NCBI GenBank assembly: GCA_004524535.1
Contig: SDNY01000001.1
Coordinates: 1 to 64,000 of the forward strand
Direction: 5' to 3'
Source of the DNA: Promethearchaeota archaeon
GTDB taxonomy: Archaea > Asgardarchaeota > Lokiarchaeia > Sigyniarchaeales > SOKP01
Length of the DNA: 64,000 nucleotides
Below, piece by piece: positions 8,072-36,825 of the stretch (its first letter is position 1; each line of letters starts with the position of its first letter). A model generated the notes under the pieces. That model saw only the letters and a program-made list of their open reading frames with translations, did not search any database and was not told the DNA's origin. A program made the translations under genes and the position numbers.

Positions 8072-8348
8072 TTTTTAAAAAAAGTATTCAGAGATTATTC
8101 AATTTTTAATAAATAAATTAATATAATAAATAAGTTAAAAATCTTAAAGAATAAAGGAAATTAATTAAATATCAAAAATTTCGTCCCTAAACAAAATCTT
8201 ATTATTCATGATCCAAATATTATGAATAATATTAAAAAATATAGAATATTTATTCGGAAAAAATCTGGAAATCCGTAAAAAGTTTTCTTAAATAGGATGA
8301 AATAGAATTTTATCCTAAAACTTAAATAGATAAATATATATTATTCAT

Positions 8349-8807: not shown

Positions 8808-9089
8808 CCATTTGGAACATTTATAATTACTTTTTTGTTAAAATTGAATTCTAATGTAGGAACATTTGTGATGGCAGAATTTTTTTTTGAATAAACTTTA
8901 CTGTACTTAATAATACTTAAATAACTAATAAGTCTCAAATGTGGTAAATCCTAGTCATTTTCAAATCTTATTTTTCTTAATTAGTTAAGAATTATTGACA
9001 AAATTATTTAATAATAAATTGAATGAGAATCTTGCTATTTCTTATTTTATAAAAAGAGTAAAAAAAAATAAAAGATTTTTGAAAAAAAT

Positions 9090-9599
9090 CTATTTTTTGA
9101 TTTGAATTTTAGGATTAATTTTAGTAGCTCCACCAAAGTTAGTTATAACTGGGCAATGAGTAAGCACTTTATCCATTAACTCGTTTATTTTTTCTTCTGG
9201 AGCATCAGCTTTAATTCTGATTACAGGTTCTAATTTATCATAGCCTGGGAGCTTACTATCATCAATTCCGAATAATGCACCAAGATTAAGGTGCCCTCGA
9301 GAAAATACTTTCATTTCTTCAATCTTTATATCCATCAATAGAGCCCAAAATTTAGTCACTGCAATAATGCAAGCGCCAATCGAGGCTAAAATTACTAATA
9401 AGGGAGATGGTCCTTTATTTGTTCCACTTAATCCACCAGGAGCATCAATAAGTAATTTAAAATCATCTCCTGCAGGATTACCCATCGTACACATGGTTTG
9501 CATACCATCAGGTAGCATTTCACATTCAATATTGAAGTTTTTTTCTCCAGCAGCCCAATCTGCCTTAATAGCATCAAATGTTTCTTTAAAACTTGGCAT
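9090..9599 (-). CDS. OsmC/Ohr family protein
   Basis: D-P-GLSGTNKGPSP...LASIGAC and C-terminal CPV. Confidence 0.85.
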   Translation of the reverse strand: MPSFKETFDAIKADWAAGEKNFNIECEMLPDGMQTMCTMGNPAGDDFKLLIDAPGGLSGTNKGPSPLLVILASIGACIIAVTKFWALLMDIKIEEMKVFSRGHLNLGALFGIDDSKLPGYDKLEPVIRIKADAPEEKINELMDKVLTHCPVITNFGGATKINPKIQIKK

Positions 9600-9643
9600 A
9601 TTTAATTCCTCTTTTTGTTATTTTTAATTTATTTTATAGGTAG

Positions 9644-10161
9644 AAAGAATAATTATTCATATGATATAAATTCAATTTTTTGTTTTATAATGTACTAATT
9701 AATTATTACAATGAGAAGAAGAATTTAGTTCTTATCAAATGAAAAAGTAAATTTAGGATTTGCTAAAGATAAATTTCTAAAATTATTTATAATTTAATGA
9801 TTCAGAATTAATAATTTATAAACACTCTATTTATTAATTTTTCTTTTATTTTCAAATTTAAATTACAAATTATCTTAATTTTAATGTTATTAATAAATAT
9901 TCATAAAAAAATATCGGAAACAGAACTTAATTTTTGACGTAGATAGGTTATTTCAGATAAATTAATAAAATTATATTCCAGTTAGAAAGATAGATAAATT
10001 AAATCATTAAAATATATTAAAATTCTTATCTATTGAAGAATAAATTGATTATATTATATTAATTTTAAATATAAAATAAATAAAAATCATTTATTTTATA
10101 GAAATTTAAGAAATTCTTATTACATAAATTGAATAGTTATTCAAAAGAATAATTATTCATA
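9644..10161. promoter_or_regulatory. Repeated palindrome GAATAATTATTC (9647-9658, 10147-10158; variant 10131-10142) in the divergent osmC/vhuG intergenic region; candidate operator
   Basis: AAAGAATAATTATTCATA is identical at 9644 and 10144; variant GAATATTTATTC at 8244-8255 upstream of the lrp gene. Confidence 0.5.
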
Positions 10162-10302
10162 AAATAGCCAGATCAGTAATTTTTTAACCGTTAGTGTATA
10201 TTTCTATCCAACTAATAATTTTAAAGAAAAATGCTTAATAAACGTAAAACAAAATTAAAACTGAAAAACCTACAAAAATAAAAAATAAAGAGTGAAAAAA
10301 AA

Positions 10303-11613
10303 ATGGTCAAAGTAGCATTCTGGCAAAATTCTGATTGCTGGGGATGCCACCAGAGCTTAATCGATTTACATTTACAGCTCTTACCGGTACTTCCAGCTTT
10401 AGAGATTGTCTATTGGCCAGCAGTAGTTGATTTCAAATATGATTCTTTGGAAGCTAGAGCTGACGGTGAAATTGTAGTTGGATTCATTGAAGGAAGTCTT
10501 AGAACTAAACAAGATGTTGAAGGTACCAAATTAATGCGTAAAAAATGTAAAATAATCATTGCTTTCGGGTCTTGTTCATGCTACGGAAATGTACATGGAT
10601 TAGCTAACCAATGGAGCAAAGAAGAACTAGTAAGGCGTAAATTTTCTGAAGTTGAAAGTATAGCTGATGGAAGTGGTGGAGAACCTACCCAACATATGCC
10701 TGGATTCGAAGATAAGATTGTTAACGTTGATGAAATTATCAAGGTTGATGCATATATTGCAGGATGTCCACCAAGATCAGAGCAGATCTTTGCTGCTATA
10801 GGATTTTTGTTAGGACAAAAACCATTTCCTATGAATGATCTTTCTTTTTGTAATGATTGCGCATTAAATCAATCCGGATGTCTCTTAGATGAAGGTAAAT
10901 TATGCTTTGGTCCAATAACCAGCATAGGATGTTCTTTAAAATGTCCTAATAATGGCAATCCATGTGTGGGTTGTATGGGACCAGCAAAAACAGTATCAGC
11001 ACGTGCTTCAAAATTAAAAGAGATGACTCAGAATATCGCTTCAGCTAGCTCAGGTGATAAAAAGAGTATAAATGAATTTCTATCACTATTTCTAAACGTG
11101 CCTCTAATGGCCGGTTTTGATTTATCAGCGGATATTTTAAAACAAGTCAAAAAGCGTGGAATACCAGAAACTCCATTAGCAAACTTACCCCCTGATACAG
11201 AAAGTATTGCTTCTAACATATTAGGATATTTAAGAGATAATAGAGACTTTACTGATATCTCAACTGTTTGCGATACTTGTGATAGAATTATTGGGAGTAA
11301 ATCAACAATGACAAAAGTGAAACGAGACTATGAAGGGCTTCCAAATTTAACTGATTGTTTGATTGAACAAGGTTATATTTGTATGGGGCCCGTAACTAAA
11401 GCTGGCTGTGGTGCCTTATGCCTAAAAGTTAACGCTCCTTGTACTGGCTGTTATGGTCAAACTGAATGGAATGTTAACCAAGCAGAAAGGTTTGCTGACA
11501 CGGTTATTAAAGGATTTAATGTGAGTTTATCCAAAGAGGAAATACTTGCACAAGTTAAGGATCATGTCGGCACTTTTGAAAAATTTACATTCGCATCAAG
11601 AAAAGGAGGCTAA
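10303..11613 (+). CDS. vhuG: F420-non-reducing [NiFe] hydrogenase small subunit (MvhG/VhuG) with a duplicated Fe-S module
   Basis: CWGC, EGS, FGSCSCYG and GCPP motifs; two copies of CxxC...CL...C.GP.T..GC...C.....C.GC.G. Confidence 0.9.
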   Translation: MVKVAFWQNSDCWGCHQSLIDLHLQLLPVLPALEIVYWPAVVDFKYDSLEARADGEIVVGFIEGSLRTKQDVEGTKLMRKKCKIIIAFGSCSCYGNVHGLANQWSKEELVRRKFSEVESIADGSGGEPTQHMPGFEDKIVNVDEIIKVDAYIAGCPPRSEQIFAAIGFLLGQKPFPMNDLSFCNDCALNQSGCLLDEGKLCFGPITSIGCSLKCPNNGNPCVGCMGPAKTVSARASKLKEMTQNIASASSGDKKSINEFLSLFLNVPLMAGFDLSADILKQVKKRGIPETPLANLPPDTESIASNILGYLRDNRDFTDISTVCDTCDRIIGSKSTMTKVKRDYEGLPNLTDCLIEQGYICMGPVTKAGCGALCLKVNAPCTGCYGQTEWNVNQAERFADTVIKGFNVSLSKEEILAQVKDHVGTFEKFTFASRKGG

Positions 11614-11618
11614 AAAAA

Positions 11619-12926
11619 ATGGTGAAAGAAATAGAAGTAGAGCCCATAACTCGATTAGAGGGACATGGTGGAATGAGAGTCGTTCTTGGAGATGATGGAA
11701 AAGTTCAAGATGTACAATTTAATGTCCAATCGACAAGATTCTTTGAAAAATTTGTTGAAGGACGATATTGCGAACAGGTTCCAAGAATAACTCCAAGAAT
11801 CTGCGGAATTTGTCCAATACCACATCATTTAACTCCAACAAAAGCAGTGGAAGATGCTTGGGGTGTTCAGATTCCTGAACCCGCAAGAAAATTAAGACAA
11901 CTCTTAATTAATGCTAAACAATACAGTTCGCATTTAATTCACTTCTACGCTTTAACTGCACCAGATTTCCTATTAGGACCTTTTGCTGATCCTGCTTTAA
12001 GAAATGTGGTTCATGTGATTAATAAAATGCCGGATGTTGGAGCTATGGCATTAAAAATGATGGATTTCGGACAGAGACTATGTGCTGCCGTTGGTGGTAA
12101 AGCAATTCACCCTATTGCTGCAATAGTCGGTGGAATGAAAAAGCCTTTGGATGAAGATGTTCGTGATAAATTCCTTGGTGTAATTGACGATCAAATTGAA
12201 ATGACTAAGAAGACTGTAGATATTGCGCTAAAAGTTATAGATGATTATTGGGATGTCGTAGCTAATGTTGGTGTTGTCCCAACATATTATGTTGGAATGA
12301 CAAAAAATGGTGTACATGACATCTATGAAGGCGATATTCGGATTGTCTCTCCAACTGGAGAAAAAACAGATTATGCTCCACAGAGATACTTAGAGGCATT
12401 AGGTGAGCATATTCCAGAACATTCATATGCGACTCATATGTACTATAAACCAGCTGGTTATCCTGAAGGAATTTATAGAGCAAACTGCTTAGCTATGATA
12501 AACTGTGCCGACAAAATGGCAACACCTTTAGCAGATGAGGCATTGAAAGCGATGCGAGAAAAGATTGGAACGAATGTAATCCATCATACCTTTGCATATC
12601 ACTGGGCACGAATAATTGAAACGGTTGAGGCAATTGAAATGATTGCAACTCTCCTAAAAGATCCAGATATCGTTAATCCTGACTGTAAAACACTTGATGT
12701 TCAACCCAGAGAAGGAAATGGTGTAGGTATAACTGAAGCTCCACGAGGACTTCTTTTATATAACATCTGGTCGGATGCCGAAGGTATTTGTAAAAAGTTA
12801 AATCTTTTAGTCGCAACAAACCACAATATCGCAGGAATCGAAAAATCGTTAATGCATGTGGCTAAACAAGTATTTGAAGACAAAGCTTTAGATGGATTAA
12901 AATTACCAGATCCATGGATAAAATAA
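11619..12926 (+). CDS. vhuA: F420-non-reducing hydrogenase large subunit (MvhA/VhuA), lacking the C-terminal Ni-binding motif
   Basis: PITRLEGHG, RICGICP (L1) and EAPRG motifs; ends ...LPDPWIK with no DPCxxC. Confidence 0.92.
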   Translation: MVKEIEVEPITRLEGHGGMRVVLGDDGKVQDVQFNVQSTRFFEKFVEGRYCEQVPRITPRICGICPIPHHLTPTKAVEDAWGVQIPEPARKLRQLLINAKQYSSHLIHFYALTAPDFLLGPFADPALRNVVHVINKMPDVGAMALKMMDFGQRLCAAVGGKAIHPIAAIVGGMKKPLDEDVRDKFLGVIDDQIEMTKKTVDIALKVIDDYWDVVANVGVVPTYYVGMTKNGVHDIYEGDIRIVSPTGEKTDYAPQRYLEALGEHIPEHSYATHMYYKPAGYPEGIYRANCLAMINCADKMATPLADEALKAMREKIGTNVIHHTFAYHWARIIETVEAIEMIATLLKDPDIVNPDCKTLDVQPREGNGVGITEAPRGLLLYNIWSDAEGICKKLNLLVATNHNIAGIEKSLMHVAKQVFEDKALDGLKLPDPWIK

Positions 12927-12963
12927 ACTAAATCAAAATTAATATAGAGTGTGAATAAAAAAA

Positions 12964-13113
12964 ATGAGTGATATACCAGAAGGAGTAGTAAATATCTTAG
13001 AAATGATTGTCCGCTGTTATGATTGCTGACTATCGTGTGCCGCTCACATCACTGTAGTTGATGAGGATGGTAAAGAAATTTACTCTCGTGAATTACACGT
13101 TGGTTTAGGATGA
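12964..13113 (+). CDS. vhuU: Selenocysteine-containing hydrogenase subunit VhuU (49 aa, in-frame UGA at 13027-13029); not in the ORF track
   Basis: Manual translation MSDIPEGVVNILEMIVRCYDC(U)LSCAAHITVVDEDGKEIYSRELHVGLG*; supplies the L2 motif missing from VhuA. Confidence 0.9.
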
Positions 13114-13171
13114 AATATCCAATAAAAATTATAGATTGGATATGACTGCCCTTGCATGGGTTAAAACCAAC
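13099..13171 (+). promoter_or_regulatory. Eukaryote-like SECIS element
   Basis: ATGA (13110-13113), 9-bp stem ATATCCAAT/ATTGGATAT (13115-13123/13135-13143), AAAAA apical loop, GA at 13144-13145; lower helix GTTGGTTT/AAACCAAC. Confidence 0.75.
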
Positions 13172-13221
13172 AAATTTGAAAAAAATAAAATGGAACAAAC
13201 TCAAAAAAAAAGTGAAAAAAA

Positions 13222-13755
13222 ATGACATTACCATTAGGTATAGATTTTGAATTTAGGAAGCAAATTATGGATGTACACATTGGATCTGATAAGATTAAAT
13301 ACTGTTATCAATGTAATCGATGCACTGACAATTGTCCTGTCGCATCTGTCGCAAATCCCTTTTATCATGAAGTGACTAATTGGTTTGATCCAAGATTGAT
13401 TGTATTAGGCACACTTCTAGGATATAAAGATATTGTGATGGCCTTAGCAGGCTCTAAATCAGCTCTTATTCCTTGGGGTTGCACCGTTTGTGATACCTGC
13501 GACGCAGTTTGTCCTCAAGCGATTGAAGTTACTGAAATTATTGGTCTAGCTAAAAATATAACTTCTGGTGCAGGACTTGCACCTGATAATATCGTAGCTC
13601 AAGCAAAAACCGTTTTTGATACCGCTAAAGCGATTCCATCACAACCCGCGATCGAGAGAAGACGAGAACAAATGGGCTTACCAGCCGTAGCTGCACCAAA
13701 TGTTAATGAAGTGCAGACTTTATTAAAAAATATAGGTGCGGATAAAAAATTATAA
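13222..13755 (+). CDS. hdrC: Heterodisulfide reductase subunit C
   Basis: CYQCNRCTDNCP and CTVCDTCDAVCP 4Fe-4S motifs; adjacent to hdrB. Confidence 0.88.
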   Translation: MTLPLGIDFEFRKQIMDVHIGSDKIKYCYQCNRCTDNCPVASVANPFYHEVTNWFDPRLIVLGTLLGYKDIVMALAGSKSALIPWGCTVCDTCDAVCPQAIEVTEIIGLAKNITSGAGLAPDNIVAQAKTVFDTAKAIPSQPAIERRREQMGLPAVAAPNVNEVQTLLKNIGADKKL

Positions 13756-13770
13756 ACGGAGGGTAAAAAA

Positions 13771-14637
13771 ATGACAGAATATAAAATGTTTGAGGGTTGT
13801 GTGATTGGTAACAGAATTCCATTTATAGAAGCATCTTCCAGAAAGGTTCTTGATAAAATTGGAGTCCAGACATCACAAGCTCCATTTTCTTGTTGTCCAG
13901 ATCCCACTGGAATGAAGTGTTTTGATAATACAGCTTGGCTTGCTATGGGCGCTCAAAACTTATGTTTAGCGGAATCAGAAGATAAACCAATCATTTCTTT
14001 ATGCAATGGTTGCGCAAACACTTTACGAGGCGTCCAATATCAATTAAAACATGATTCCAATAAAAAAGAGGCGATTAATAAAGAATTAGCCAAAATTGGA
14101 AAGGAATATAAAGGTTCAATTGATGTAAGGCATTTTGTTGACGTTCTTAAGGAAAATTTAAGTGCTATTAAGAGTGCTGTTACGAAACCAATGAGCAATC
14201 TGAAAGTAGCTTGCCATCCTGGCTGCCACTATATGCGACCTGTAGAATGGATGGAATCTGATGATCCATTACGTCCTGTAAATTTGAAAGAGATTGCTGC
14301 TGCTACCGGTGCTAATGTAGTTGATTATGACGAGTTAGCATTATGTTGTGGAAATGCTGTGGCTGGTCCGTTTCCGGATCATGGCGATGCAATTCTAAAA
14401 AAGAAATTAGACTCAGTTAAAAAAGCAGGTGCTGACGTGATTGTTGTGAATTGTCCTGCCTGCTTTCAACGATTTGATACATCCCAGAGAGATCTATCGA
14501 AGAAATTCGATGGAGAGTATAATATTCCTGTACTTTATATAACAGAATTAATTGCTTTAGCAATGGGAATTAGTTCTGAAGATATTGGGATTAAGAATCA
14601 TCGTGTTCGACGAGGTACAGCAATAGAAAATCTCTAA
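13771..14637 (+). CDS. hdrB: Heterodisulfide reductase subunit B
   Basis: Two CCG domains (GC...SCCPDP...CNGC; HPGCH...CCG...CPAC). Confidence 0.92.
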   Translation: MTEYKMFEGCVIGNRIPFIEASSRKVLDKIGVQTSQAPFSCCPDPTGMKCFDNTAWLAMGAQNLCLAESEDKPIISLCNGCANTLRGVQYQLKHDSNKKEAINKELAKIGKEYKGSIDVRHFVDVLKENLSAIKSAVTKPMSNLKVACHPGCHYMRPVEWMESDDPLRPVNLKEIAAATGANVVDYDELALCCGNAVAGPFPDHGDAILKKKLDSVKKAGADVIVVNCPACFQRFDTSQRDLSKKFDGEYNIPVLYITELIALAMGISSEDIGIKNHRVRRGTAIENL

Positions 14638-24890: not shown

Positions 24891-26693
24891 ATGAAATTAG
24901 TAAACCCGTATAAGCCATCTGTATATCAACTGGAACCTCGGAAAAGGCTAATTTGGATAATCTCTCTTATCGGATGTGGTATTTATGCAATTATCGTATT
25001 TATAATTTTATTTATACTTCAGATACCAAATGAATTAATGATTATTACGATCTATACTTATATGGTTATTGGACCATTAACTATATATTTGTTATGGCTT
25101 GTTTTTTATAGATGGAAAATAAAAAAATGGCCTCGAAACAAGAAAGTATTTGGTGAACCAATTCATTATACATTACTTTTAATATCGATTGGTATCTGTG
25201 TTATTAACTGGGCTGCTTATTGGAATACGGGTCTTGATAGCATTTGGTTAATTTTTGCATCATGGATTTATATTCTTAGTGATAACTTATTACTTGGGAC
25301 TATAATCTATACTGTTGGTGCTTCAGCTATTACACCTGCTTTTACTGAAGAATTCTTGAAGTCTTTCCCTAGCATTATTGCTTTTTTTGTAGTTTTACAA
25401 AGGGATAGAAATCTGGAGGAGAAGAGAAAGGGATTGTTAGGAAATGAGTTAGGAGGATTTTTATTTGGATTAGTAATTGGAATAACATTTGAGATTTTAG
25501 AGCTAATATATTATCTATTAATTACAATATCCTCAGGAGGAGGTGCTTTTGATATATATTTTCAAGTTACCGTTAGAGATTTTTCTCCACTTCATATACT
25601 TGGAGGTGCAATTGGTGGATTTGCGGCGGGCAGGGCTGAAAGACTTCGTTATGAGCGAGGAGAAGAGGATTTACCTATGAAAATTCAAATAATCAATTTT
25701 ATTAAACGTTTTTTACCATTATGGCTTATCCCCGTTTCGATCCACTTTCTCTGGAATAGTTCAAGTGTTTGGATTTATTTAATAATTCTAGCGATAGATG
25801 GTGATATATTGTTAAATTTAATTCTTGAGATGATCGTAATCGTTACATTAAGTGCATTATGCTTTTTTATATTACTTTTACTATTAAGATGTGCTAATAG
25901 AATTACTGAGAAAACTTATCGATGCTCTGAAACAGGGATTATCGTTGCAAAGGAAGGGGATATTTGTTCCTTATTTAGTGACAAAAAAACCGATGTTGAA
26001 CCAACAAAAAAACCTTTAGATAAAGCTTTTATTGCTCAAGACACAGAAATTGTTTGTCCAAATTGTGATAAGGTAAATATAAGAGGAGCAAATTTCTGCA
26101 TAAATTGCGGTTTCCAAATAGCTAGTTATTATTATTGTCCAAATTGCAGTAAGGCTAATAAATTTGGAATAAAATTTTGTATACACTGTGGATTTCAAAT
26201 ACAACAATTAAAAACACCCCAAATTTTTCCTATGTCAAATGAAAGACCCTCTAAAGCATTACTCGTCATTTCGTTAATTGTAACTATAGGTTTTCTATTT
26301 TATATTGTATTATTTGCAATTTTAGCTTTGCTGATATATGGCATTTTTGGATTTTTCTATTTAGCTTTTCAAATAAGCATAGAGATAGTAGCTGCAGTAG
26401 TAATGTTTTATGCTATTATAACTCTCTTTAAAATGAGGAAGAATTATAATGGAAGAAAAAATATCTGGTCATGGTATCTTTTAATTTTTAATTTAATTGG
26501 AATATTTGGACTGCTTGTAATTTATGGTATTTTAGGTGTGATTTATGGAATTATTGCATTCACGCTCGGCTATATTACGTTAATAACGGGGCTTGGATTC
26601 CTTTTTCTAGCTGGAGCCACATTAGTTTTTATATTTCTTTTAAGAACAATATTAAAATCTGATGAAATGCTTCAATATCAAACTAAAAATTAA
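24891..26693 (+). CDS. PrsW-family intramembrane metalloprotease with a double zinc ribbon
   Basis: EEFLK, FEILE and HFLWN motifs; two CPNC...FCIxCG ribbons. Confidence 0.8.
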   Translation: MKLVNPYKPSVYQLEPRKRLIWIISLIGCGIYAIIVFIILFILQIPNELMIITIYTYMVIGPLTIYLLWLVFYRWKIKKWPRNKKVFGEPIHYTLLLISIGICVINWAAYWNTGLDSIWLIFASWIYILSDNLLLGTIIYTVGASAITPAFTEEFLKSFPSIIAFFVVLQRDRNLEEKRKGLLGNELGGFLFGLVIGITFEILELIYYLLITISSGGGAFDIYFQVTVRDFSPLHILGGAIGGFAAGRAERLRYERGEEDLPMKIQIINFIKRFLPLWLIPVSIHFLWNSSSVWIYLIILAIDGDILLNLILEMIVIVTLSALCFFILLLLLRCANRITEKTYRCSETGIIVAKEGDICSLFSDKKTDVEPTKKPLDKAFIAQDTEIVCPNCDKVNIRGANFCINCGFQIASYYYCPNCSKANKFGIKFCIHCGFQIQQLKTPQIFPMSNERPSKALLVISLIVTIGFLFYIVLFAILALLIYGIFGFFYLAFQISIEIVAAVVMFYAIITLFKMRKNYNGRKNIWSWYLLIFNLIGIFGLLVIYGILGVIYGIIAFTLGYITLITGLGFLFLAGATLVFIFLLRTILKSDEMLQYQTKN

Positions 26694-26761: not shown

Positions 26762-28171
26762 CTATTCATTCAAGAGTCCATATCTTTTAAGTCCTTCTCT
26801 CATATCGGCTTGAAATGGTCCTGGAGTGCCCTCTATAAATGCTTCAACAATATCCTGGTTTTTAACCTCTTTTGAAACTCTTTTTTTTGCTTTCTCTTCC
26901 GCAAGTGAGGAAATTGCCATTCTCGCCATAGATTGAAATTGTGGGGGCGATAATTTTATTAATTCATCAAAAATCCTCGCAGTCTCGGGATTCCAGTTTA
27001 ATCCCTTTTTTTTCTTTTCCTTTGGTTTGGCAGTGTCAATACCAAATTCCCGACTGGTTATTAGATCATCAATATAATCATTCAATGATTCAACATACCT
27101 AGGAGCTTCTTCTTTATCAAGAATAACTGCTTTTTTCCCCCATTGTTCACAATAATTACATTCATCACACATTGAAATACAGTCTTGCTTTTTGAAGAAT
27201 TCAATAAATCCATCGAGTTTAGTATTATCTATTATTAATTTCGATTTAGGCTCTTTTACAAACGTTTCAGTCATTTTAACATTAGGATCTTTTTCAACTC
27301 CAACAGTCATAGAAAAACCTTGAATAATATCTACAAGGTTTCCTTCATATTTACGAGATGAAAATGCCTTGACAGCTCGAAGTATCCATTCAGTACTCAT
27401 ACGGCGTCCAGCAATTTTGAAATTTTCAATTCCAATAGCCTCATAATGAGATAAATCCTCGGGGCGCACCCATCGTGCTTTAACTACTTCAGTAGGATTT
27501 GAAAATTTAATGACACTGCAATTAAGGATACAATAATCAATATATACCCCTCCGAGTTGGTGGGAAGATTGAGAAGAATGCCCTACAATATTATAATGAT
27601 AATATCTAAAAGGACATTGATATAAACAACCATCAGTTAAAAGGAGATTAATATTACATTTAACTGCTTTTTTAATTTTCTTCAATGTCTTAAAATCGCG
27701 ATTAATCATTACATCGGGGGTAATCTCATCAGCACCCATTGCTTCATAGAATTTTGCCCGATTAACACTGTTAACGTGAGCAATTGTAGAGACACGAATT
27801 TTCAACTTGGGAAATTGTTCTTTTATTAAGCGGATTAAAAAAGGAATAGTCACAATTACATTATCCGACCCAATATCGCTTATCCATTGAAGGTAATTTA
27901 GCAACTCTTTATGATACGCCGCATCATATTCCATATTACCCATACATGGCGCATTAAGCAAATAAGAGAATTTCATTTTTTTTTCATGAACATTCTTAAT
28001 ATATTCCGCAATTTGTTCTTCCTTAATATCCTTTAAAAGAAATGAAGGCCGTCCATGGCCAACAATAGAGGATTTTGAAGCTCCATAGATCTCTCTTACT
28101 GGATATTTAGCTAATTCATCGATGAGTTTAAAATCCCAATTTGTCGCAACGGTAAATTGAATTCTTTTCAC
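26762..28171 (-). CDS. U32-family Fe-S protein (UbiU/UbiV/TrhP superfamily) with C-terminal DUF2621/PCP_red-like domain
   Basis: YLLNAPC, VSTIAHV, GCLYQCP...YCILNC, FKIAGR; C-terminal W...P..F...AE...TP..F domain. Confidence 0.8.
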   Translation of the reverse strand: MKRIQFTVATNWDFKLIDELAKYPVREIYGASKSSIVGHGRPSFLLKDIKEEQIAEYIKNVHEKKMKFSYLLNAPCMGNMEYDAAYHKELLNYLQWISDIGSDNVIVTIPFLIRLIKEQFPKLKIRVSTIAHVNSVNRAKFYEAMGADEITPDVMINRDFKTLKKIKKAVKCNINLLLTDGCLYQCPFRYYHYNIVGHSSQSSHQLGGVYIDYCILNCSVIKFSNPTEVVKARWVRPEDLSHYEAIGIENFKIAGRRMSTEWILRAVKAFSSRKYEGNLVDIIQGFSMTVGVEKDPNVKMTETFVKEPKSKLIIDNTKLDGFIEFFKKQDCISMCDECNYCEQWGKKAVILDKEEAPRYVESLNDYIDDLITSREFGIDTAKPKEKKKKGLNWNPETARIFDELIKLSPPQFQSMARMAISSLAEEKAKKRVSKEVKNQDIVEAFIEGTPGPFQADMREGLKRYGLLNE

Positions 28172-28279: not shown

Positions 28280-28666
28280 TTATTTACTCACTTTTCCGTG
28301 AGCTTTAGCATTTAATGGCAATAAAGGAGCACAAGCCATGAGCTTAGACATATCTCCTTCGACTACATAAGTTCCAGTCATAGTTTCTTGAATAGGATCT
28401 GATTCACCCGAAAGAGTTTTTTTCAATGTGCTGAAGTCAGTTTTATGGGATATTTTTGGAGCATCTGGACCTGAATATTCACCCATCCCCCATTTTATCT
28501 GGTCTTTTTCAACAAATTGCCAATAATTCATCTCTTCTCTATCTGTTATAATGAATTGGAATGTCAATGGCGCAAGTGCTCCCAATAAGGGAGCTAATTC
28601 TGGCAGCTCATTAAATGCTTTCATATATTCTGTAAGATATGCTTCCCATTCTTCTTTTGTATCCAT
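28280..28666 (-). CDS. SCP2 sterol/lipid-binding domain protein
   Basis: TFQFII...LSGESDPIQETMTGTYVVEGDMSKLM SCP2 signature. Confidence 0.8.
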   Translation of the reverse strand: MDTKEEWEAYLTEYMKAFNELPELAPLLGALAPLTFQFIITDREEMNYWQFVEKDQIKWGMGEYSGPDAPKISHKTDFSTLKKTLSGESDPIQETMTGTYVVEGDMSKLMACAPLLPLNAKAHGKVSK

Positions 28667-28943
28667 CTAAATTTTCACCTCCTTTCTTTTTCATTTGTTA
28701 AATATTTTTAATTTTCATAATTTATAACAACCTTACCGTTGGGACATAAATTGGAATCCAATTTAGTAGGTCAATTCTTGGAGATATACAAAATTTCTTG
28801 GGGCAAAAAAACCTACAACATTTATTCCAACATCCGAGAATAATATATCCTTATTCATCACTATTCGTATCCAGCATATAATTTATTAATTAGAATTGAA
28901 AATTATTTTTATAGAAGTAAAATAATTTTTACATTCTTTAACA

Positions 28944-30113
28944 TCATTTAACTTCTAAACCAGCTTTAGCACCATCTGATAATAAATTTATCATACTTTC
29001 AGTGTAATCATTTTCAATCTTGTAGAAAAGGCCATCACGACCAAACGTAATACTACAAATAAATTTATGGATCTTTGTAATAGTTGGAATATTTTCGACA
29101 TATTTTTTGATCAATGGATGAAAATTCACTGGAGCTTGCTCTTCTTCAGGAAAACCGATTCCAAAACAGATTCGCTCTACCCTATCACTATCCCAGTTAA
29201 AAGTGTAATAGATAGTCAAAGCCTCACAACATTTTTTCATTACTTCCGGCGGGCCAATTTCGAAATTTAGCTCTTTGAGTAAAGTTTCATAAACTTCTTG
29301 TCTAGCTTTTGACGGATCTTTAATCATGAAGTAGATATTTGTAGAATTATTACGAAAATCAAGACCAAAGACACTAAAAACATTAAGTCCATGTTTTTCA
29401 AAATAATCTCTATGTTTATTAATACTATTTGGGATTGTAGACATTGAATATGTTGGTTCAAATGGACTAGGGACGATGAACGGCCAGATTTTAGACAAAC
29501 CAGTCCTTACATCCAAATCAACACCCCACCCCAATATATCAAAGGTTGATAAAATCTCTGGAATCATCTTATGAATTGGATGCCCATTTTTTTCAATTAA
29601 TCCTTCATTAATTGCAGTTGTGTAAGGATCTGGATTGTGAGGTATCATATGCTCTAAATATCGTACTGAAATGTCTCTTTTTTCTTTTGGTTTTGTGGTT
29701 GTTCGGATTGTAACCGTCGAACCAGTATAAAAATCCTTGTAAGCATTTAATACATTCCATATCGCTTTTTCATCACATATAACTTCTGCAAGTTCCCCTA
29801 TTTTTAATATGTGATCAACCAATTGTTTTAGATCTGTATTAAATTTATATGTACACTTTATCTTTGCAAGATATTTGTCAAGATCAACATTTAACCTTTT
29901 CAAATCCTCTTTCATCATGTCTTGAAAAGCTGGTGGGGTAACTTCAAACATAGAGATAACAAGATCTACCTCAGCTACAGCTTTTCCATTTCGCTCCATA
30001 CATTTCTTCTCTGCAGCTTCACGAACTACGGGGCCAACTATAGGTCTAACTGTTTCTGGAGTTCCCGCTACAATTTCTTCATAAAGCTTTTTAACTTCTG
30101 GTTGCCATTCCAT
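28944..30113 (-). CDS. Soluble ABBA-type aromatic prenyltransferase (NphB/CloQ/PpzP family) with N-terminal DUF2621-like domain
   Basis: IRTTT...ISVRY, GVDLDVRTGLSKIW, FGLDFRNNSTNIYF, IYYTFNWDSDRVERICF, YKIENDY match the PT-barrel strands in order. Confidence 0.82.
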   Translation of the reverse strand: MEWQPEVKKLYEEIVAGTPETVRPIVGPVVREAAEKKCMERNGKAVAEVDLVISMFEVTPPAFQDMMKEDLKRLNVDLDKYLAKIKCTYKFNTDLKQLVDHILKIGELAEVICDEKAIWNVLNAYKDFYTGSTVTIRTTTKPKEKRDISVRYLEHMIPHNPDPYTTAINEGLIEKNGHPIHKMIPEILSTFDILGWGVDLDVRTGLSKIWPFIVPSPFEPTYSMSTIPNSINKHRDYFEKHGLNVFSVFGLDFRNNSTNIYFMIKDPSKARQEVYETLLKELNFEIGPPEVMKKCCEALTIYYTFNWDSDRVERICFGIGFPEEEQAPVNFHPLIKKYVENIPTITKIHKFICSITFGRDGLFYKIENDYTESMINLLSDGAKAGLEVK

Positions 30114-30182: not shown

Positions 30183-31604
30183 TTAATTTTGATATTTAGC
30201 AAATTGAATTTGGCCCATTTCATTAAATCCTTCTGGATTATTTAAGCCAATTCCGGGTGCGAACCATCCTGAATTTTTTTCACAATATTCTCTTATTATT
30301 TGAAATAAATCGAATTCTTTGATTTTTGGAGAGATATAAAATTTAGGTTTTAACAGGTTCTCTCCATTTTTTAACACTCCATCTTGTACTGCGATGCGCT
30401 GGAGAGGGGTATGTGGGTAAATTCTCATTCCTGAAAAAATAACCACATCATTATCACCTTCCCACACCTCTCCCCTAAAATTTTCGATTGTTTCTAATTG
30501 ATTAAATGAAGCACGAACGGTTTCAACAGTTTCATCTGGTCCTCCAACAATTATATGAATTAATTGTTCAATTTCTAAATCAAAACATCTTTTTGAAGTA
30601 AGGATAGCATCATCTGGAGTCCTCTTTTGCTTTATATTTCTCAAAATCTCCTCTGATAAAGATTCAAAACCTGTATCAAGATGAGTAACCCCACTTTCCT
30701 TCATGAGGGGCATTAAATCAACAAATTCTTTATTGGGATCGTAATTTGCCCCCCATTTTAAATCGATTTTGCGTTTTATTATTTCTTGGCATATCTCTTT
30801 TAGATTTTGGTAATTTAAATTGAGAACACCATCAACAAAAAAAACATTATTAATTCCTAAATTATTTACAATAAATTCAAGTTCATCAGCTATTCTTTTG
30901 GGAGATCGATACCGAACGGTCGAACCTTCAATATATCTATAACTACAATAGATACATTTATGAGGACAACCACGCTTTGTTTGAACATTTCCCCAAATAG
31001 CACCTGTTTTATTCATACAATAGATATATTCATTATTATCTACCAACTCTCTAGCAGGATTTGGCAGATCATCAAGATTTTTAACGCGCCATGGTGGTTT
31101 TTGATGATAATTTCCTTTTCCATCTATAAAACATACACCTTTTTCTATTTTTCTAGGATCTTCATCCTTTTTAATATGTTTTAAAATTTCAATAAAAACA
31201 TATTCACCATCTCCAACGACACCAATATCGTGGTTTAAATCCCTAAGAATCTCTTCTGAAAAAATTGAGAAACCAGCACCACCTAAAACTATTGGAATAT
31301 CTGGTTCAGCAATCTCTTTTATATACTGAATAATACGCTTAGCTGGTAAGTAAAAAAATAGATTTGCTGGATAAGTTGTTGAATCAATATTACGAATAGA
31401 GATACCTATTAATTGAGGATTAAAATCATCTATTGCTTTTGTGATATCATTCTTTGAATCGTTACTAAGAGTTAAATCCCTTAGCATTACTTCATGTCCT
31501 TTAGAAAGAAGATAGGACGCAATATATGCTTCTCCTATAGGTGGGACCATTACATGTACTAGTTCCCGACTCCCAGAAAATATTAATACTCGCATAATCC
31601 TCAC
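30183..31604 (-). CDS. B12-binding-domain radical SAM enzyme (resembles the lipid-biosynthesis type)
   Basis: PPIG, ISIRNID, VLGGAGFS, GDGE, QTKRGCPHKCIYC. Confidence 0.88.
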   Translation of the reverse strand: MRIMRVLIFSGSRELVHVMVPPIGEAYIASYLLSKGHEVMLRDLTLSNDSKNDITKAIDDFNPQLIGISIRNIDSTTYPANLFFYLPAKRIIQYIKEIAEPDIPIVLGGAGFSIFSEEILRDLNHDIGVVGDGEYVFIEILKHIKKDEDPRKIEKGVCFIDGKGNYHQKPPWRVKNLDDLPNPARELVDNNEYIYCMNKTGAIWGNVQTKRGCPHKCIYCSYRYIEGSTVRYRSPKRIADELEFIVNNLGINNVFFVDGVLNLNYQNLKEICQEIIKRKIDLKWGANYDPNKEFVDLMPLMKESGVTHLDTGFESLSEEILRNIKQKRTPDDAILTSKRCFDLEIEQLIHIIVGGPDETVETVRASFNQLETIENFRGEVWEGDNDVVIFSGMRIYPHTPLQRIAVQDGVLKNGENLLKPKFYISPKIKEFDLFQIIREYCEKNSGWFAPGIGLNNPEGFNEMGQIQFAKYQN

Positions 31605-31641: not shown

Positions 31642-33036
31642 TTATTCAATTATTAATTCTTCACGAGAATTATCTCTCTTATGGTCATGATCATTTTCAT
31701 GCCAACAATATGAAAATGGTCCGAATATATCACCCGTTTCACATTCAGCATGCACGCGACAACCTCCACCACAATACTGAAGATGATGACAAGATGCACA
31801 TTTTCCATTACGTTTTTTTCTGTCTCTGATGTCTTTAAATAGTTGGGAGTTAAGTACATCTTCAAAGCTGTCCTCTAAAGCATTACCGAGAGTGGTTTTT
31901 GTTGGATAGCCACATGGATAAATAGTACCGTCCACCCCAACACCCATCATTGTTCTGCATGCCAAGCATCCTATCCCCCATTCAATTGTAGCCAATTCCT
32001 TATCATCTCTTATTTCCTCCACAAAGGGGGTCATCTCATATATTTCATAAATGGGTAATGTACCTGCTTCGCCTTCTCTTATTTTTTCAATAGCATGCTT
32101 GAATTTGAAATCATATAATTTTTTATATTCCTCTTGACTGAGTCCGATTTGATCCCAAAATTCAGATGCTCGATTTTGTTTTACTACAGCTCTAAAAAAT
32201 GTTTCTGCCCCCCATTCTTCTGATAATGCCTTAAGTTTATCTAGCTCATTAATGTTTTGCTTCATTATTGTAATTGAAGTACATACAAATAATCCATATT
32301 TCAAGCAATTTTTTATTGCTTTTTCTGCATATTCTAATGAATTAGTAAATCCACGGATTTCATCATTTTTTTTGGGATCTGCGCTTTCAAAACTAACAAA
32401 CACATGACTCATATCATTATGCTTAGCCATTTTGGCAAATTTCTCATCAAATTTTACACCGTTGGTTATAATAGCATGAATATAACCCTTTTCTTTACAA
32501 AATTTCATAATTTCGGAAATATCTTCGCGTAAAGTAGGTTCACCTCCAAACCATATATAACATCCATGTCTTCCTTGTTTTTGTAATCCTGTTTCCAAGT
32601 TTTCTATTATTTGGAACCATTCTTTTGTTGAAAGCTCAGGGCGAGGTATATAATCATCTACAGCACAATGTAAACATTTCATATTACATCTATCAGTAAG
32701 ATACATTGCAAAATGTACATTACCTGGACGAAAAGCTCTTATAATATTTTCCCAACTAACTTTGATTCGATCCATGATATCCTTCAGTACAATATACCGT
32801 TCAACATCAACTCCCAGTGATGTCAAATCCTCAACCGTCGTTGGTTTAAATGCTTCAGGAGTTACATCAAATATCCCAGTGACCAAATCAGCTTCATTGA
32901 TATTGGAACCGTTCCGTTCATTGCATTTATTCTCGGCAGCTTTTATTATCATCGGCTTTACAGAAGGACGAATTCCTTCGGGAATTTTTTCTATAATTTT
33001 ATTAAATAATTCTTCTGTTTTTTTTTCCCAATCCAA
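31642..33036 (-). CDS. Radical SAM/SPASM protein with N-terminal DUF2621-like domain
   Basis: CNMKCLHC, FGGEPTLR; SPASM GC...IYPC...CASC...CGGGCR. Confidence 0.9.
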   Translation of the reverse strand: MDWEKKTEELFNKIIEKIPEGIRPSVKPMIIKAAENKCNERNGSNINEADLVTGIFDVTPEAFKPTTVEDLTSLGVDVERYIVLKDIMDRIKVSWENIIRAFRPGNVHFAMYLTDRCNMKCLHCAVDDYIPRPELSTKEWFQIIENLETGLQKQGRHGCYIWFGGEPTLREDISEIMKFCKEKGYIHAIITNGVKFDEKFAKMAKHNDMSHVFVSFESADPKKNDEIRGFTNSLEYAEKAIKNCLKYGLFVCTSITIMKQNINELDKLKALSEEWGAETFFRAVVKQNRASEFWDQIGLSQEEYKKLYDFKFKHAIEKIREGEAGTLPIYEIYEMTPFVEEIRDDKELATIEWGIGCLACRTMMGVGVDGTIYPCGYPTKTTLGNALEDSFEDVLNSQLFKDIRDRKKRNGKCASCHHLQYCGGGCRVHAECETGDIFGPFSYCWHENDHDHKRDNSREELIIE

Positions 33037-33042
33037 AAATTA

Positions 33043-34416
33043 TCACCTTGATTTGCAATTTTCATGTTCATGGTCATCTTCATGCCAACAGAAAGGAAGA
33101 GATTCTAGAAAATCACCGGTTTCGTTCTCTGCGTGGCATCTGCAACCACCCCCACATAATTCGAGGTGATGACAAGATGCGCACCGCCCTTTTATATTTC
33201 TATCTCTAATATCTTTGAAAAGCTTTGATTCCATTATTTCATTGAAATCTTGCTTTAGCACATTGCCCAAGGTTAATTGGGATGGATAATCGCATGGGAA
33301 GAAATCTCCATTAATATCAATACCTGAGACTGAACGACATGCTTGACATCCTACCCCCCATTCTAAAGCTGTTCGCTCTTCATCGTTGACAGGGCATTCC
33401 ATGAAAGGTACCATGTCATACATAAGAAACTTATGGATACCACGCACTTCCCCTTTTCTGATTGCATCAGTAATTTTACTATATTTAAAGGTATAAAATT
33501 GCCGGTATTCATCCAAATTTAACCCTATTTCATCCCAGTTTATATCAGCAGATCTTTGTTTAATAATTGCTCTGAAATATACTATTACACCCATAGATTC
33601 TAATCTGTCTTTTATTTTTTCCAACTCATCAAAATTTTCTTTTTGCGCAGTTGCGGTACAAATAGTAAGATTACCATATTTTAGAGATAATTTAATTGCT
33701 TTTTCAGCTGCTTCATATGCGTTTGGAACGCCTCTAATCTTCGCAGCTCTTTCAGGATCCACGCTATCGTAGCTAATAAAGACATGACTGATTTTAACCT
33801 CAGCACATAATTTTGCAAGTTCCTCATCAAATAACATACCATTTGTAGAAACAGCTTGATAATATCCCTTTTCACCACAATACCTTATCAAATCATTGAG
33901 ATCCTTGCGAAGAGTAGGCTCTCCACCAAACCATATATAACAACCTCGACGACCACGTTTTCGTAATGTTTCCTCGACATTTTCGATAATGTCAATCCAT
34001 TGTTCTGTTGATAATTCTGGACGATTCTCTATCACTGAAGCACCACAATGGCGGCATTTTTGGTTGCATCGATCAGTTAGATACATTGTGAAATGATAAA
34101 CTCCTGGGATAAATGCAGCGCTTACATCGTCCCATGAACGTGCATGTGCCTTCATAATTTCTGATAATTGTATATACCGATCTGTATCTATTCCTAAATC
34201 TTTCAAATCATTAACTACAGTTGGTTTAAACGGTTCCGGTGTAATCTCAAACAGTGCGGATAATAAATCATCTTTTCCTACAAATCTAGAATTCCTAAGC
34301 CTTGCTGTTTTTTCAGCGGTTTCATGCAACATAGGTTTAACTGCTGAACGAAACGCCTCAGGAACCTGATCTGTGATTTTCCCGAACAAATTCTCAACTT
34401 CTTGTTCCCATTCCAT
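33043..34416 (-). CDS. Radical SAM/SPASM protein with N-terminal DUF2621-like domain (paralog of the downstream gene)
   Basis: CNQKCRHC, FGGEPTLR; SPASM GC...FFPC...CASC...CGGGCR. Confidence 0.9.
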   Translation of the reverse strand: MEWEQEVENLFGKITDQVPEAFRSAVKPMLHETAEKTARLRNSRFVGKDDLLSALFEITPEPFKPTVVNDLKDLGIDTDRYIQLSEIMKAHARSWDDVSAAFIPGVYHFTMYLTDRCNQKCRHCGASVIENRPELSTEQWIDIIENVEETLRKRGRRGCYIWFGGEPTLRKDLNDLIRYCGEKGYYQAVSTNGMLFDEELAKLCAEVKISHVFISYDSVDPERAAKIRGVPNAYEAAEKAIKLSLKYGNLTICTATAQKENFDELEKIKDRLESMGVIVYFRAIIKQRSADINWDEIGLNLDEYRQFYTFKYSKITDAIRKGEVRGIHKFLMYDMVPFMECPVNDEERTALEWGVGCQACRSVSGIDINGDFFPCDYPSQLTLGNVLKQDFNEIMESKLFKDIRDRNIKGRCASCHHLELCGGGCRCHAENETGDFLESLPFCWHEDDHEHENCKSR

Positions 34417-34527: not shown

Positions 34528-35241
34528 TCATTTTTTTCCCTCCCAAATGACATATTCATTAAAATCAGAAATATAATTAATTTTGAGATGAGGATAGGAA
34601 TTATTAGAAAGATAAATCCCTGGTTTTTCAAAAAGAGAATACTTCGCTAAATATAAAATTCTTTTGAAATAACAATTTAGTTTGAACTCAATTTTCCTAT
34701 AAGAAATCCTTTTTTGAAAAGTGTTATTTAAATATCTCTTGTTCCTCAAATTTATAAAGAAACTATTGATTCTCTCATTCTTTTTATAATTTCTATCAAT
34801 TTTTCTTATGAGTTCATCATCTATATACTGTTTTATTTGACTACTGAGATAAAAATAATAATGTGTTTCTTTAGACATAAAAGAGACTGTATCTAAATAA
34901 CGAAATGCTTGAGTATCACCATAAAATAATACTTTTTTAACATAATGATAACAGCAAGAATCAATAAAACAATAGATACTGATTATAATATAAATATCAC
35001 TTAATTGACCAATACTCAACGGAATAATTTGTTGCCCTTTAGGTAAAAACCATAAAATCTTTATATAAGGTAGATTCGGAATAAAAAGTGAATTACCACA
35101 TTTAAAGTAATCCTTTAATGAAGAAGACAAAGAGTTTATATTACTTAAAAACGTGTAGATCAATGTAACAAGGAAAAATGAAGAAAGAAACAGTAGAATC
35201 AAGAGTATTTTTAGTTTTTTAAATATTTTAATATTATACAT
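34528..35241 (-). CDS. Hypothetical protein with N-terminal hydrophobic segment
   Basis: 237-codon open frame in very AT-rich DNA; atypical composition, no family recognised. Confidence 0.4.
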   Translation of the reverse strand: MYNIKIFKKLKILLILLFLSSFFLVTLIYTFLSNINSLSSSLKDYFKCGNSLFIPNLPYIKILWFLPKGQQIIPLSIGQLSDIYIIISIYCFIDSCCYHYVKKVLFYGDTQAFRYLDTVSFMSKETHYYFYLSSQIKQYIDDELIRKIDRNYKKNERINSFFINLRNKRYLNNTFQKRISYRKIEFKLNCYFKRILYLAKYSLFEKPGIYLSNNSYPHLKINYISDFNEYVIWEGKK

Positions 35242-35334: not shown

Positions 35335-36825
35335 CTATTCATCCATTGTTTTAGTAAATTTCAATGATGATGTAAGAAACAAGGGCGCTGCATGTATTAA
35401 AAATAGTGTGTTTAAATTTTGAATATTAGTTCCAGTAATAAATCTCTTTTTGTAATTAATAACGTTATAAAAATAAGACTTTTTAGCTTTTTTAAATGCT
35501 TCAACGACTTCTAAAAACGAATTATATTTTAATTTTATTCCAAAACTCTCTGGAGATTCATGAGCAGGAGAACCAGGAAAAATATAGTAAGCCTCATTCA
35601 TTATTGTAATTGGCTTGAAATTTGATTTGCCATATTTTAATATACATTTCGATGCAAAAATAAAATCTTTCATAACATCAATAAAGGATTGAAAAGGATA
35701 ACCCATTGTCAACCAAATTCTTAATTTCGTTAGGTTTAAATTCGCATTTTTTATAGTATCTTTAATTTGATTTAAAGGGAAGTTAAATGTTGGATCGCAA
35801 ATTTTTGCTATTTTTTGATGCACACGATGAGAAGTTGTTCGAGGAGAAATACTAATTGATGAATCTCTCCGAGTAAATGTTTTAGAAAACATTTTCCACA
35901 TTTCTTTCGGAAAGGGAAGCCGCCAAATCTCCAAATCTCCACCTATATCAAGATTCTCTTTTTGCAACAGCTTAAGTATTTGCTCCCAATATTTTAAATT
36001 AGAAGGATAAGCACCATGGCCAAAAAAAATACTTGGAACTTTAAATTTGTTAAGAACATTGTTTATATCTTCTATAACCTTTTCTGGACTCCTAAGAACA
36101 ACATTGTTTCGCCCAGCTAACAGTTGTTGAGCTCTTTGACCTCCTCCACAAAGAGGACAATTAAATCGACATCCTCTTCCAATAGGGATAACGCCAGAGA
36201 TTCCCATCATCTTTCTGCTATTTTCAAAATAATATTTAGCATTTTTTAGGAGTGAAAAATTTGTAAAATTCAAATCATCTAAAGTCTTAGCTACATAGGA
36301 AATAGGATTTTCTTTAATATGTTTTGAAGAATCTTGATATGATAAATTGGGAACAGAATCTAATAATTTATTATGATTTACCTTTTGAATATATTGTAAA
36401 AATGGAGTTTCACCATCTCCACTAATGATCGCATCGATTTCTTTAAAGTACTTTAAAATATCATTACGATAATATGAGGCACTTAGACCTCCAAGAATAA
36501 TTTTAACATTTGAATTTACTGATTTTACAATTTTGGCAATCTCAATAACTGCATGCGAGTTATGTATCCAATGTAAATCAATTCCACATATATCAAAATT
36601 AATAGATTTGAGATAGTCTTTTAATGACCAATTAATATCTAAGAATTGCTCTAATGGATAATTTATAATTTTAACTCCAAAGCCCTCTCTTTCAAGTAGA
36701 TCGGCAATGGCAAAAACACCCATTGGAATGAAAAGGTACGATCCTCGAATAAATCTGGCCTTTTTACCATAATTATGTTTTAACGTACGAGGAGGATGAA
36801 TAAAAATTATGTCGTAGCTTTTCAA
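35335..36825 (-). CDS. B12-binding-domain radical SAM enzyme
   Basis: IPMG, GIDLHW, ILGGLSAS, GDGE, GRGCRFNCPLC. Confidence 0.88.
   Translation of the reverse strand: MKSYDIIFIHPPRTLKHNYGKKARFIRGSYLFIPMGVFAIADLLEREGFGVKIINYPLEQFLDINWSLKDYLKSINFDICGIDLHWIHNSHAVIEIAKIVKSVNSNVKIILGGLSASYYRNDILKYFKEIDAIISGDGETPFLQYIQKVNHNKLLDSVPNLSYQDSSKHIKENPISYVAKTLDDLNFTNFSLLKNAKYYFENSRKMMGISGVIPIGRGCRFNCPLCGGGQRAQQLLAGRNNVVLRSPEKVIEDINNVLNKFKVPSIFFGHGAYPSNLKYWEQILKLLQKENLDIGGDLEIWRLPFPKEMWKMFSKTFTRRDSSISISPRTTSHRVHQKIAKICDPTFNFPLNQIKDTIKNANLNLTKLRIWLTMGYPFQSFIDVMKDFIFASKCILKYGKSNFKPITIMNEAYYIFPGSPAHESPESFGIKLKYNSFLEVVEAFKKAKKSYFYNVINYKKRFITGTNIQNLNTLFLIHAAPLFLTSSLKFTKTMDE

Follow-up and report, generated by a model that had tools for sequence, protein, structure and literature searches.

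Soluble aromatic prenyltransferases of the ABBA family are valued as biocatalysts for their promiscuity. Among solved structures, those matching the enzyme described below come from Streptomyces (NphB, also named Orf2, EpzP and CloQ; PDB 1zb6, 4ee6 and 2xlq) and from cyanobacteria, where AmbP3, FamD1 and AmbP1 (5y7c, 5ynt and 5yk9) are the indole prenyltransferases of hapalindole and ambiguine alkaloid clusters. A second described system resembles the genes that surround it: according to those parts of PMC6747719 on which we draw, O2-independent hydroxylation in Proteobacteria requires UbiU and UbiV, which are U32 proteins with [4Fe-4S] clusters, and UbiT is an SCP2 protein. Here we describe a gene for an ABBA prenyltransferase (the PT gene, with PT as its product) in a stretch of 64,000 nucleotides, hereafter the window, from the assembly Promethearchaeota archaeon GCA_004524535.1 (contig SDNY01000001.1, positions 1-64,000). 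Its fused N-terminal domain, which we call the tag, and its conserved operon are more unusual features than the prenyltransferase family itself. We think it reasonably probable that PT is a soluble enzyme performing one step of an O2-independent operon whose product, a prenylated aromatic lipid or metabolite, is accessory.

The prenyltransferase, its fold and its host

The PT gene is a single open reading frame (28944..30113, minus strand) of 389 amino acids with an ATG start. Pfam profile PTase_Orf2 (PF11468) matched PT residues 94-378 over nearly its full length (positions 2-283 of 287), with an E value of 7.1e-51, far beyond chance, and a score of 173.8 bits (cut-off 22), which places PT in the family. 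A six-frame search of the genome (3.66 Mb, 198 contigs, 99% complete, 4.4% contamination) returned this copy alone (G000:C51:28980-29834, minus strand, no internal stops). No NCBIfam model matched the protein. On searching PDB sequences with phmmer, the best matches were FamD1 (5ynt, 1.4e-41), AmbP3 (5y4g, 1.6e-41) and AmbP1 (5yk9, 1.6e-40), followed by EpzP (4ee6, 2e-35), NphB (1zb6, 3.8e-20) and CloQ (2xm5, 4e-11). The preliminary description of this DNA had placed the characterised enzymes in actinobacteria and fungi; this picture was incomplete, the closest solved ones (AmbP3/FamD1 and AmbP1) being cyanobacterial. Neither the tag nor the operon figured in that description.

An AlphaFold2 model built from 20 homologues (mean predicted local distance difference test score, pLDDT, 90.5; predicted template modelling score, pTM, 0.87) consisted of five helices (residues 5-86) and then ten strands alternating with helices. 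The ten strands lie between residues 133 and 368 and form a PT barrel. Foldseek ranked AmbP3 (5y7c) at the top, with an E value of 2.7e-29, a target-normalised template modelling (TM) score of 0.91 and a root-mean-square deviation (rmsd) of 2.2 Å over 291 columns; AmbP1, EpzP, NphB and CloQ ranked below it. Profile match, barrel and Asgard-labelled homologues (see below) confirmed the earlier proposal that this archaeal genome encodes a genuine ABBA (PTase_Orf2) aromatic prenyltransferase.

Active-site residues were paired by phmmer alignment to the NphB variant 7fhd, whose numbering is that of 1zb6 plus 2. PT K208, W210, N259, Y261 and R314 correspond to NphB K119, Y121, N173, Y175 and R228, which we take to hold the prenyl diphosphate. 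Counted across 113 PTase_Orf2 representatives, the most conserved residues of the family are all retained in PT: R151, D199, T304 and R314 (each common to 104/113), Y261 (105/113), W307 (103/113), K208 and N259 (102/113 each), W210 (96/113), K365 (98/110) and Y370 (106/110). S149 of PT aligns with NphB D62, the Mg2+ ligand of that enzyme, so that the NphB-type aspartate is missing. Aligned Asgard sequences have S or A in this column, which across 112 filled rows of the family reads S 43, N 23 and D 14 times. Because serine replaces D62 and the Asgard column is restricted to S or A, the PT site would be Mg2+-independent, more like CloQ, EpzP and AmbP3 than like NphB. The 19-residue Kyte-Doolittle mean peaked at only 1.2, with no transmembrane segment, indicating that PT is soluble, unlike the UbiA family. 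PT is probably an active enzyme.

Homologues of PT (n = 131) are nearly all 388-390 amino acids long, and the 389-390-residue architecture is kept across 49-90% identity among the 120 listed. The closest, 78-90% identical, lie on contigs labelled Promethearchaeota (Asgard), and many Asgard homologues already bear the NCBI name "aromatic prenyltransferase". The genome also encodes ribosomal protein S19e, found among 14 control genomes in four archaea only; its gene sits on another contig than the PT gene, in a bin with the contamination given above. Since the closest homologues and the syntenic loci are on Promethearchaeota contigs, and S19e is in the genome, the host of the PT gene is, on sequence grounds, an archaeon of the Asgard group. 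In full-text literature that mostly leaves out subscription journals, we found nothing on an Asgard PT, the tag or the operon, and a search combining "ABBA prenyltransferase" with archaea produced no archaeal enzyme, judged by titles and abstract openings.

The tag domain and the operon

The tag (~80 residues) opens not only PT but also two radical S-adenosylmethionine (SAM)/SPASM proteins encoded beside it, SPASM1 and SPASM2, and closes a neighbouring U32-family protein (PT 1-85, SPASM1 2-86, SPASM2 3-86 and U32 395-473 of the open frame). When the genome was translated in six frames (14,648 frames of at least 50 amino acids) and searched with a profile of the four window tags, exactly those four copies came up, all in the PT operon. 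The operon's two cobalamin radical SAM enzymes lack the tag. The same enzyme types are tagged in related loci, and the combination of tag and barrel is a new architecture of ABBA prenyltransferase. The tag is C-terminal to the barrel in the homologues of Candidatus Deferrimicrobium and in two archaeal loci (L027 and L030), and one Odinarchaeota-labelled homologue has none. Against longer proteins, the tag profile gave 164 matches at E <= 1e-5, of which the best 120 were examined; among the matches listed with precomputed Pfam domains, the carriers were prenyltransferases, radical SAM/SPASM proteins, U32 proteins and one protein of the aldehyde-ferredoxin-oxidoreductase family. This last protein (P0337, 711 amino acids, metagenomic, with PF02730 and PF01314) matches at E 2.3e-19 and is a fourth enzyme fold with a tag. 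We also observed a U32 homologue (L008:5104-6798, a 565-amino-acid frame) with tandem tags at residues 392-472 and 487-565.

Modelled alone from 35 copies, the tag folded into a five-helix bundle (pLDDT 91.4). Foldseek found nothing for it in the PDB at E <= 0.001; the PCP_red domain 2kru appeared at E 0.56 (rmsd 3.1 Å over 61 columns), and a wide fold search (VIA) placed AAA+ lid domains first (Z 7-8.3) and scored the PCP_red-like 2l09 at Z 6.1, all of it within the stated helical-bundle noise. Scanned one by one, the window tags matched DUF2621 (PF11084) weakly (E 8.1e-5 to 2.4e-3, 18.3-23.1 bits, cut-off 27.7; the PT tag at E 1.4e-3 and 19.1 bits), and one tag copy in locus L018 reached 30.8 bits. 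Over the 35 copies W3, P19 and P60 are invariant, and no invariant Ser, Lys or Cys is present that could hold a prosthetic group. The tag, all-helical in the model, gave no Pfam match to PqqD. Complex prediction of tag and SCP2 protein gave an interaction score (ipSAE) of 0.00 in both runs, which speaks neither for nor against binding.

The PT gene is the sixth of eight genes in a row on the minus strand (B12b, the 237-amino-acid protein, SPASM2, SPASM1, B12a, PT, SCP2 and U32; Table 1). Gaps from SPASM2 to PT are 6, 37 and 69 bp, then 277 bp separate PT from SCP2 and 108 bp SCP2 from U32. The best NCBIfam matches of these neighbours were compared with the family cut-offs. B12a scored 290.7 bits against 360 for TIGR04072 ("lipid biosynthesis B12-binding/radical SAM protein") and 205.5 against 450 for BzaD; SPASM1 scored 132.9 against 500 for AhbD (E 1.7e-38) and 118.2 against 265 for MftC; and U32 scored 32.9 against 534 for TrhP and 14.9 against 440 for UbiU, so that it does not qualify as a UbiU orthologue. 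U32 residues C172, C182, C186, C214 and C218 are kept in 21/21 orthologues, and a second motif, CX3CX2CX2C at 331-341, in 20/21.

Table 1. Features of the PT operon in the window and their occurrence in related loci
Feature	Position	Strand	Basis	Loci (of 31)
B12b, second cobalamin-binding radical SAM protein, head of row	35335..36825	-	Pfam B12-binding + Radical_SAM	14
237-amino-acid protein, hydrophobic N-terminus, weakly conserved member (homologue at same position)	34528..35241	-	no Pfam match	9
SPASM2, radical SAM/SPASM, N-terminal tag	33043..34416	-	Pfam	25
SPASM1, radical SAM/SPASM, N-terminal tag	31642..33036	-	Pfam Radical_SAM + SPASM	23
B12a, cobalamin-binding radical SAM, untagged, 69 bp upstream of PT	30183..31604	-	Pfam B12-binding + Radical_SAM	20
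PT gene, two-domain soluble aromatic prenyltransferase	28944..30113	-	open reading frame + Pfam PF11468	
N-terminal tag domain, PT residues 1-85, five-helix bundle	29859..30113	-	four-copy profile	
PT-barrel catalytic domain, residues 94-378	28980..29834	-	Pfam + genome search coordinates	
SCP2 lipid-carrier-type protein, free-standing, 128 amino acids	28280..28666	-	Pfam SCP2 E 4.1e-6, 27.5 bits vs 21.3	17
U32-family Fe-S enzyme, C-terminal tag	26762..28171	-	Pfam Peptidase_U32 E 9.3e-14	20
Further distant U32-like gene pair, directly after PT in many loci				15
Flanking CDP-alcohol transferase				8
Flanking glycosyltransferase family 2 (GT2)				7

A scan of the genome collection yielded 31 loci with the gene, labelled Asgard or uncultured archaeon (28), Thermoplasmata (1) and Candidatus Deferrimicrobium (2). 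At least one partner gene was present in 30 of them, the exception being a 2.7-kb contig. The counts in Table 1 are lower bounds, since many loci end at contig edges. In four loci (L007, L018, L019 and L027) the SCP2 match falls on an untagged frame of ~500 amino acids; Pfam confirmed those of L018 and L027 as radical SAM/SPASM-SCP2 fusions, a third, untagged radical SAM/SPASM type. On the complete archaeal chromosome CP070629 the locus is a minimal set of SPASM, C-terminally tagged PT, SPASM-SCP2 and tagged SPASM; neither a U32 nor a B12 gene is present. Two loci (L002:10001-12456 and L003:3-2341) each carry two tandem PT paralogues. The window PT belongs to copy A, the rarer type (85%; 329/389 identical), not to the commoner copy B (55-56%; 218/389), and no copy-B remnant was found at 28600-29000.

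Other genes of the window were noted in passing. Convergent with U32 is a 600-amino-acid polytopic membrane protein (24891-26693, plus strand) with two zinc-ribbon motifs in its central loop (DZR and Zn_ribbon) and no other family. The PT operon stands at the edge of a ~33-kb island (37003-60000) with five more B12 radical SAM genes, one untagged radical SAM/SPASM gene, two LuxE-type genes, a CDP-alcohol phosphatidyltransferase, two GT2 glycosyltransferases, a deacetylase and a GH113-like gene. Further away (10303-14637, plus strand), genes for the small (Oxidored_q6) and large (NiFeSe_Hases) subunits of a NiFe-hydrogenase, a 4Fe-4S dicluster protein and a CCG-domain protein lie in a row, a gene set like the soluble Mvh/Hdr hydrogenase-heterodisulfide-reductase.

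Distribution and origin

PF11468 was detected in 32 of 399 species-representative Asgard genomes, all in one class, and in none of the others; among high-quality Asgard genomes the count was 13/90. Positive genomes amounted to 29/134 in the window's own family (its genome included), 2/3 in a second family and 1/2 in a third, and PT was present in 4/8 other genomes of the window's genus. The tag was found in 38/134 genomes of the window's family: all 29 PT-positive genomes were tag-positive, and none of the 96 tag-negative genomes had PT. Nine family genomes, three of them 98-100% complete, had the tag and no PT.

Four of five PT-less genomes of 98-100% completeness had no tag at all. The fifth, from the same genus as the window, carries a reduced cluster (L036; G172:C1:288000-307000, locus 8049-12468). 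It retains the 237-amino-acid gene, SCP2, U32 and B12a beside the same CDP-alcohol transferase, glycosyltransferase and B12 genes, and lacks PT, SPASM1, SPASM2 and B12b. It ends in a 65-amino-acid fragment of the U32 tail (tag) with a TGA stop, which looks like the scar of a deletion or duplication. This erosion and the patchy occurrence point to an accessory cluster, subject to gain, loss and erosion within single genera.

A HMMER search over 1.84 billion representatives gave 146 clusters at E <= 1e-10 and only 227 at E <= 0.001, so the PT family is small. A quick maximum-likelihood tree (LG+G4) was calculated with the Shimodaira-Hasegawa-like approximate likelihood ratio test (SH-aLRT) as its only support, on 113 rows with a matched barrel of at least 230 residues, shorter ones being excluded. 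A single subtree of 29 rows (SH-aLRT 93) contained all 17 tagged rows; the remaining 84 rows of the tree were untagged. The window PT paired with the other Asgard representative (SH-aLRT 98), and both belonged to an 11-row clade (SH-aLRT 99) including three proteins from metagenome-assembled genomes (MAGs) of Deltaproteobacteria. A second tagged clade included Acetivibrio clariflavus WP_014254177. Source names were available for six of the 20 nearest clusters: three Deltaproteobacteria, one A. clariflavus, one unclassified bacterium and one Aggregatilineaceae.

Horizontal acquisition or a deep archaeal branch had been offered as alternatives in the preliminary description. Occurrence in a single class, in half of the other genomes of the genus, and in a clade shared with Deltaproteobacteria MAGs favours exchange with bacteria and disfavours the deep branch. 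On balance we lean towards acquisition of PT by one Asgard class from anaerobic bacteria, the direction being what we infer from this pattern. The local G+C of PT (0.32) is the same as that of the window, so any transfer would be old rather than recent.

Proposed role and comparison with known systems

PT shares its tag with three neighbouring oxygen-independent enzymes, and for this reason the cluster probably builds a prenylated aromatic lipid. In the mechanism that we propose, the barrel would bind an allylic prenyl diphosphate through R151, K208, N259, R314 and K365, together with W210, Y261 and Y370, and PT would alkylate an electron-rich aromatic acceptor. The SCP2 protein would hold the hydrophobic prenylated intermediate while the U32 Fe-S enzyme hydroxylates it without O2, one or both cobalamin radical SAM enzymes may C-methylate it, and the two radical SAM/SPASM enzymes may add radical chemistry. 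The tag on PT, SPASM1, SPASM2 and U32 would be a pathway-specific adaptor or lid, and the product an accessory compound, not a core cofactor.

Several observations weigh against this proposal. None of the neighbours reaches an NCBIfam equivalog cut-off, and the closest solved relatives of PT, going by their PDB entry titles, prenylate indole alkaloids, not lipids. The spacing of the four cysteines C182, C186, C214 and C218 in the window U32 protein, CX3CX27CX3C, departs from CX6CX15CX3/4C, given as the recurrent motif of U32 families in the parts of PMC6747719 used here. SCP2, U32 and B12a can exist without PT, since L036 keeps them with neither PT nor SPASM genes. A metagenome scan with a single protein as query gave three loci. 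In a metagenome locus of A. clariflavus type (L033:9001-10713), a Nudix hydrolase gene comes directly after the tagged PT, which is flanked by AhpC, AhpF, AhpC, a nitroreductase and an oligopeptide transporter; unlike in the Asgard operon, no radical SAM, U32 or SCP2 gene accompanies it within ~9 kb upstream and 2 kb downstream. The tag therefore cannot merely be a dock between operon enzymes, and this locus argues for a function of the tag in the PT enzyme itself. What we observed are the family and fold of PT, its conserved residues, the synteny, the patchy occurrence and the distribution of the tag; Mg2+ independence, the acceptor class and the parts played by neighbours and tag are what we deduce.

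Other functions were considered for the cluster. It could be an archaeal counterpart of anaerobic ubiquinone synthesis, with PT in place of the membrane UbiA-type enzyme and a quinone-like respiratory carrier as product. U32 and SCP2 proteins would then mirror UbiU, UbiV and UbiT, the additional distant U32-like pair after PT in many loci would fit, and a B12 radical SAM enzyme could methylate the ring, as the score of B12a against BzaD might suggest. Yet the 99%-complete genome gave no match to NrfD, NuoH (NADHdh), NarI-type cytochrome b, Ni_hydr_CYTB or Cytochrome_B, nor to the MqnA/MqnD family, although all six family searches were positive in several named control genomes. ABBA barrels, moreover, usually accept short prenyl donors, and the cluster occurs patchily even inside the window's genus, with no tag in four of the five near-complete genomes that lack PT. 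The genome contains three UbiA-family genes. Because the five quinone-reactive families sought were not found and the distribution is patchy, a specialised lipid or metabolite is favoured, and we regard a respiratory quinone as unlikely. A functionless relic of bacterial transfer, which the patchy distribution and the tag fragment with its stop codon in the same genus might suggest, is the least credible of the explanations: the frame is intact, the family-conserved residues are all retained, architecture and synteny are conserved among the homologues, and the G+C of PT matches that of the host.

Peptide and tetrapyrrole substrates were weighed on similar grounds. In pathways for ribosomally synthesised and post-translationally modified peptides (RiPPs), one recognition domain occurs on several unrelated tailoring enzymes. 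The tag could be such a leader-peptide recognition domain, with PT prenylating Trp or Tyr of a ribosomal peptide, and SPASM1 does resemble the peptide maturases MftC (4.3e-34) and PqqE (1.2e-25). However, no family of small intergenic open reading frames (20-120 amino acids) recurred in more than three of 32 stretches (the 31 loci and the window), a search that did not extend to precursors encoded elsewhere, and the 277-bp gap after PT holds no plausible precursor. The helical tag, with no Pfam match to PqqD, does not help this explanation, and SCP2 and U32 suggest a lipid-like substrate. As no conserved short gene accompanies the cluster, a peptide substrate is quite improbable. A tetrapyrrole, prenylated by PT as it is by membrane enzymes on the way to haem o or chlorophyll, is suggested by the best NCBIfam matches of SPASM1 (AhbD, NirJ2, AhbC and NirJ1), by the match of B12a to BchE (7.3e-32) and by the weak likeness of the tag to the PCP_red domain of protochlorophyllide reductase subunit B (2kru and 2l09). 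All these matches are far under the family cut-offs or in helical-bundle noise, and Pfam annotation revealed no tetrapyrrole biosynthesis gene in the window; we give this explanation little credence. We retain an accessory compound, a prenylated aromatic lipid or metabolite, as the most likely product.

The archaeal tagged lineage widens both the range of the family and its architecture. Asgard archaea are the closest prokaryotic relatives of eukaryotes, and the operon would offer a handle on Asgard lipid or cofactor chemistry by oxygen-independent enzymes alone. The tag on unrelated enzymes provides a testable case of the way in which a pathway might be arranged around a hydrophobic intermediate. 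To be set against this, the PT gene is accessory and the databases already name PT correctly. In a broader and only tentative view, some Lokiarchaeia-type Asgard archaea and scattered anaerobic bacteria might have in common an undescribed pathway that needs no oxygen and leads to an aromatic membrane lipid bearing prenyl, hydroxyl and methyl groups. There a soluble ABBA prenyltransferase would replace the membrane UbiA-type enzyme, and a new helical adaptor of 85 residues, carried by at least four unrelated enzyme folds, would bring the enzymes together round a single greasy substrate or carrier.

The best matches of PT in both sequence and structure, AmbP3, FamD1 and AmbP1, share its Pfam family and PT-barrel fold at TM 0.88-0.91, rmsd 2.1-2.2 Å and 27-30% identity, as well as the motifs R-Y at 151-152, GLxKIW, NxYF, TFNW, ERxCF and KIxxDY. 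They are untagged, and their alkaloid clusters are unlike the radical SAM, U32 and SCP2 neighbours of PT. NphB, EpzP and CloQ, also of the same family and fold and untagged, are more distant (E 2e-35 to 4e-11). Tag and barrel are found together in bacterial prenyltransferases 27-44% identical to the window PT, namely the Deltaproteobacteria MAG proteins MBN2342829, MBN2528232 and MBN2528233, WP_014254177 and those of Candidatus Deferrimicrobium. Next to its prenyltransferase, the PT operon pairs a U32 protein with conserved cysteines and an SCP2 protein, the SCP2 gene lying between the PT and U32 genes, in the manner of UbiU, UbiV and UbiT as far as the cited parts of PMC6747719 describe them. 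The window U32 protein differs in being the product of a single gene, not orthologous and with another cysteine spacing. The likeness is one of logic, with a greasy substrate, a carrier and an O2-free hydroxylase, and not one of orthology.

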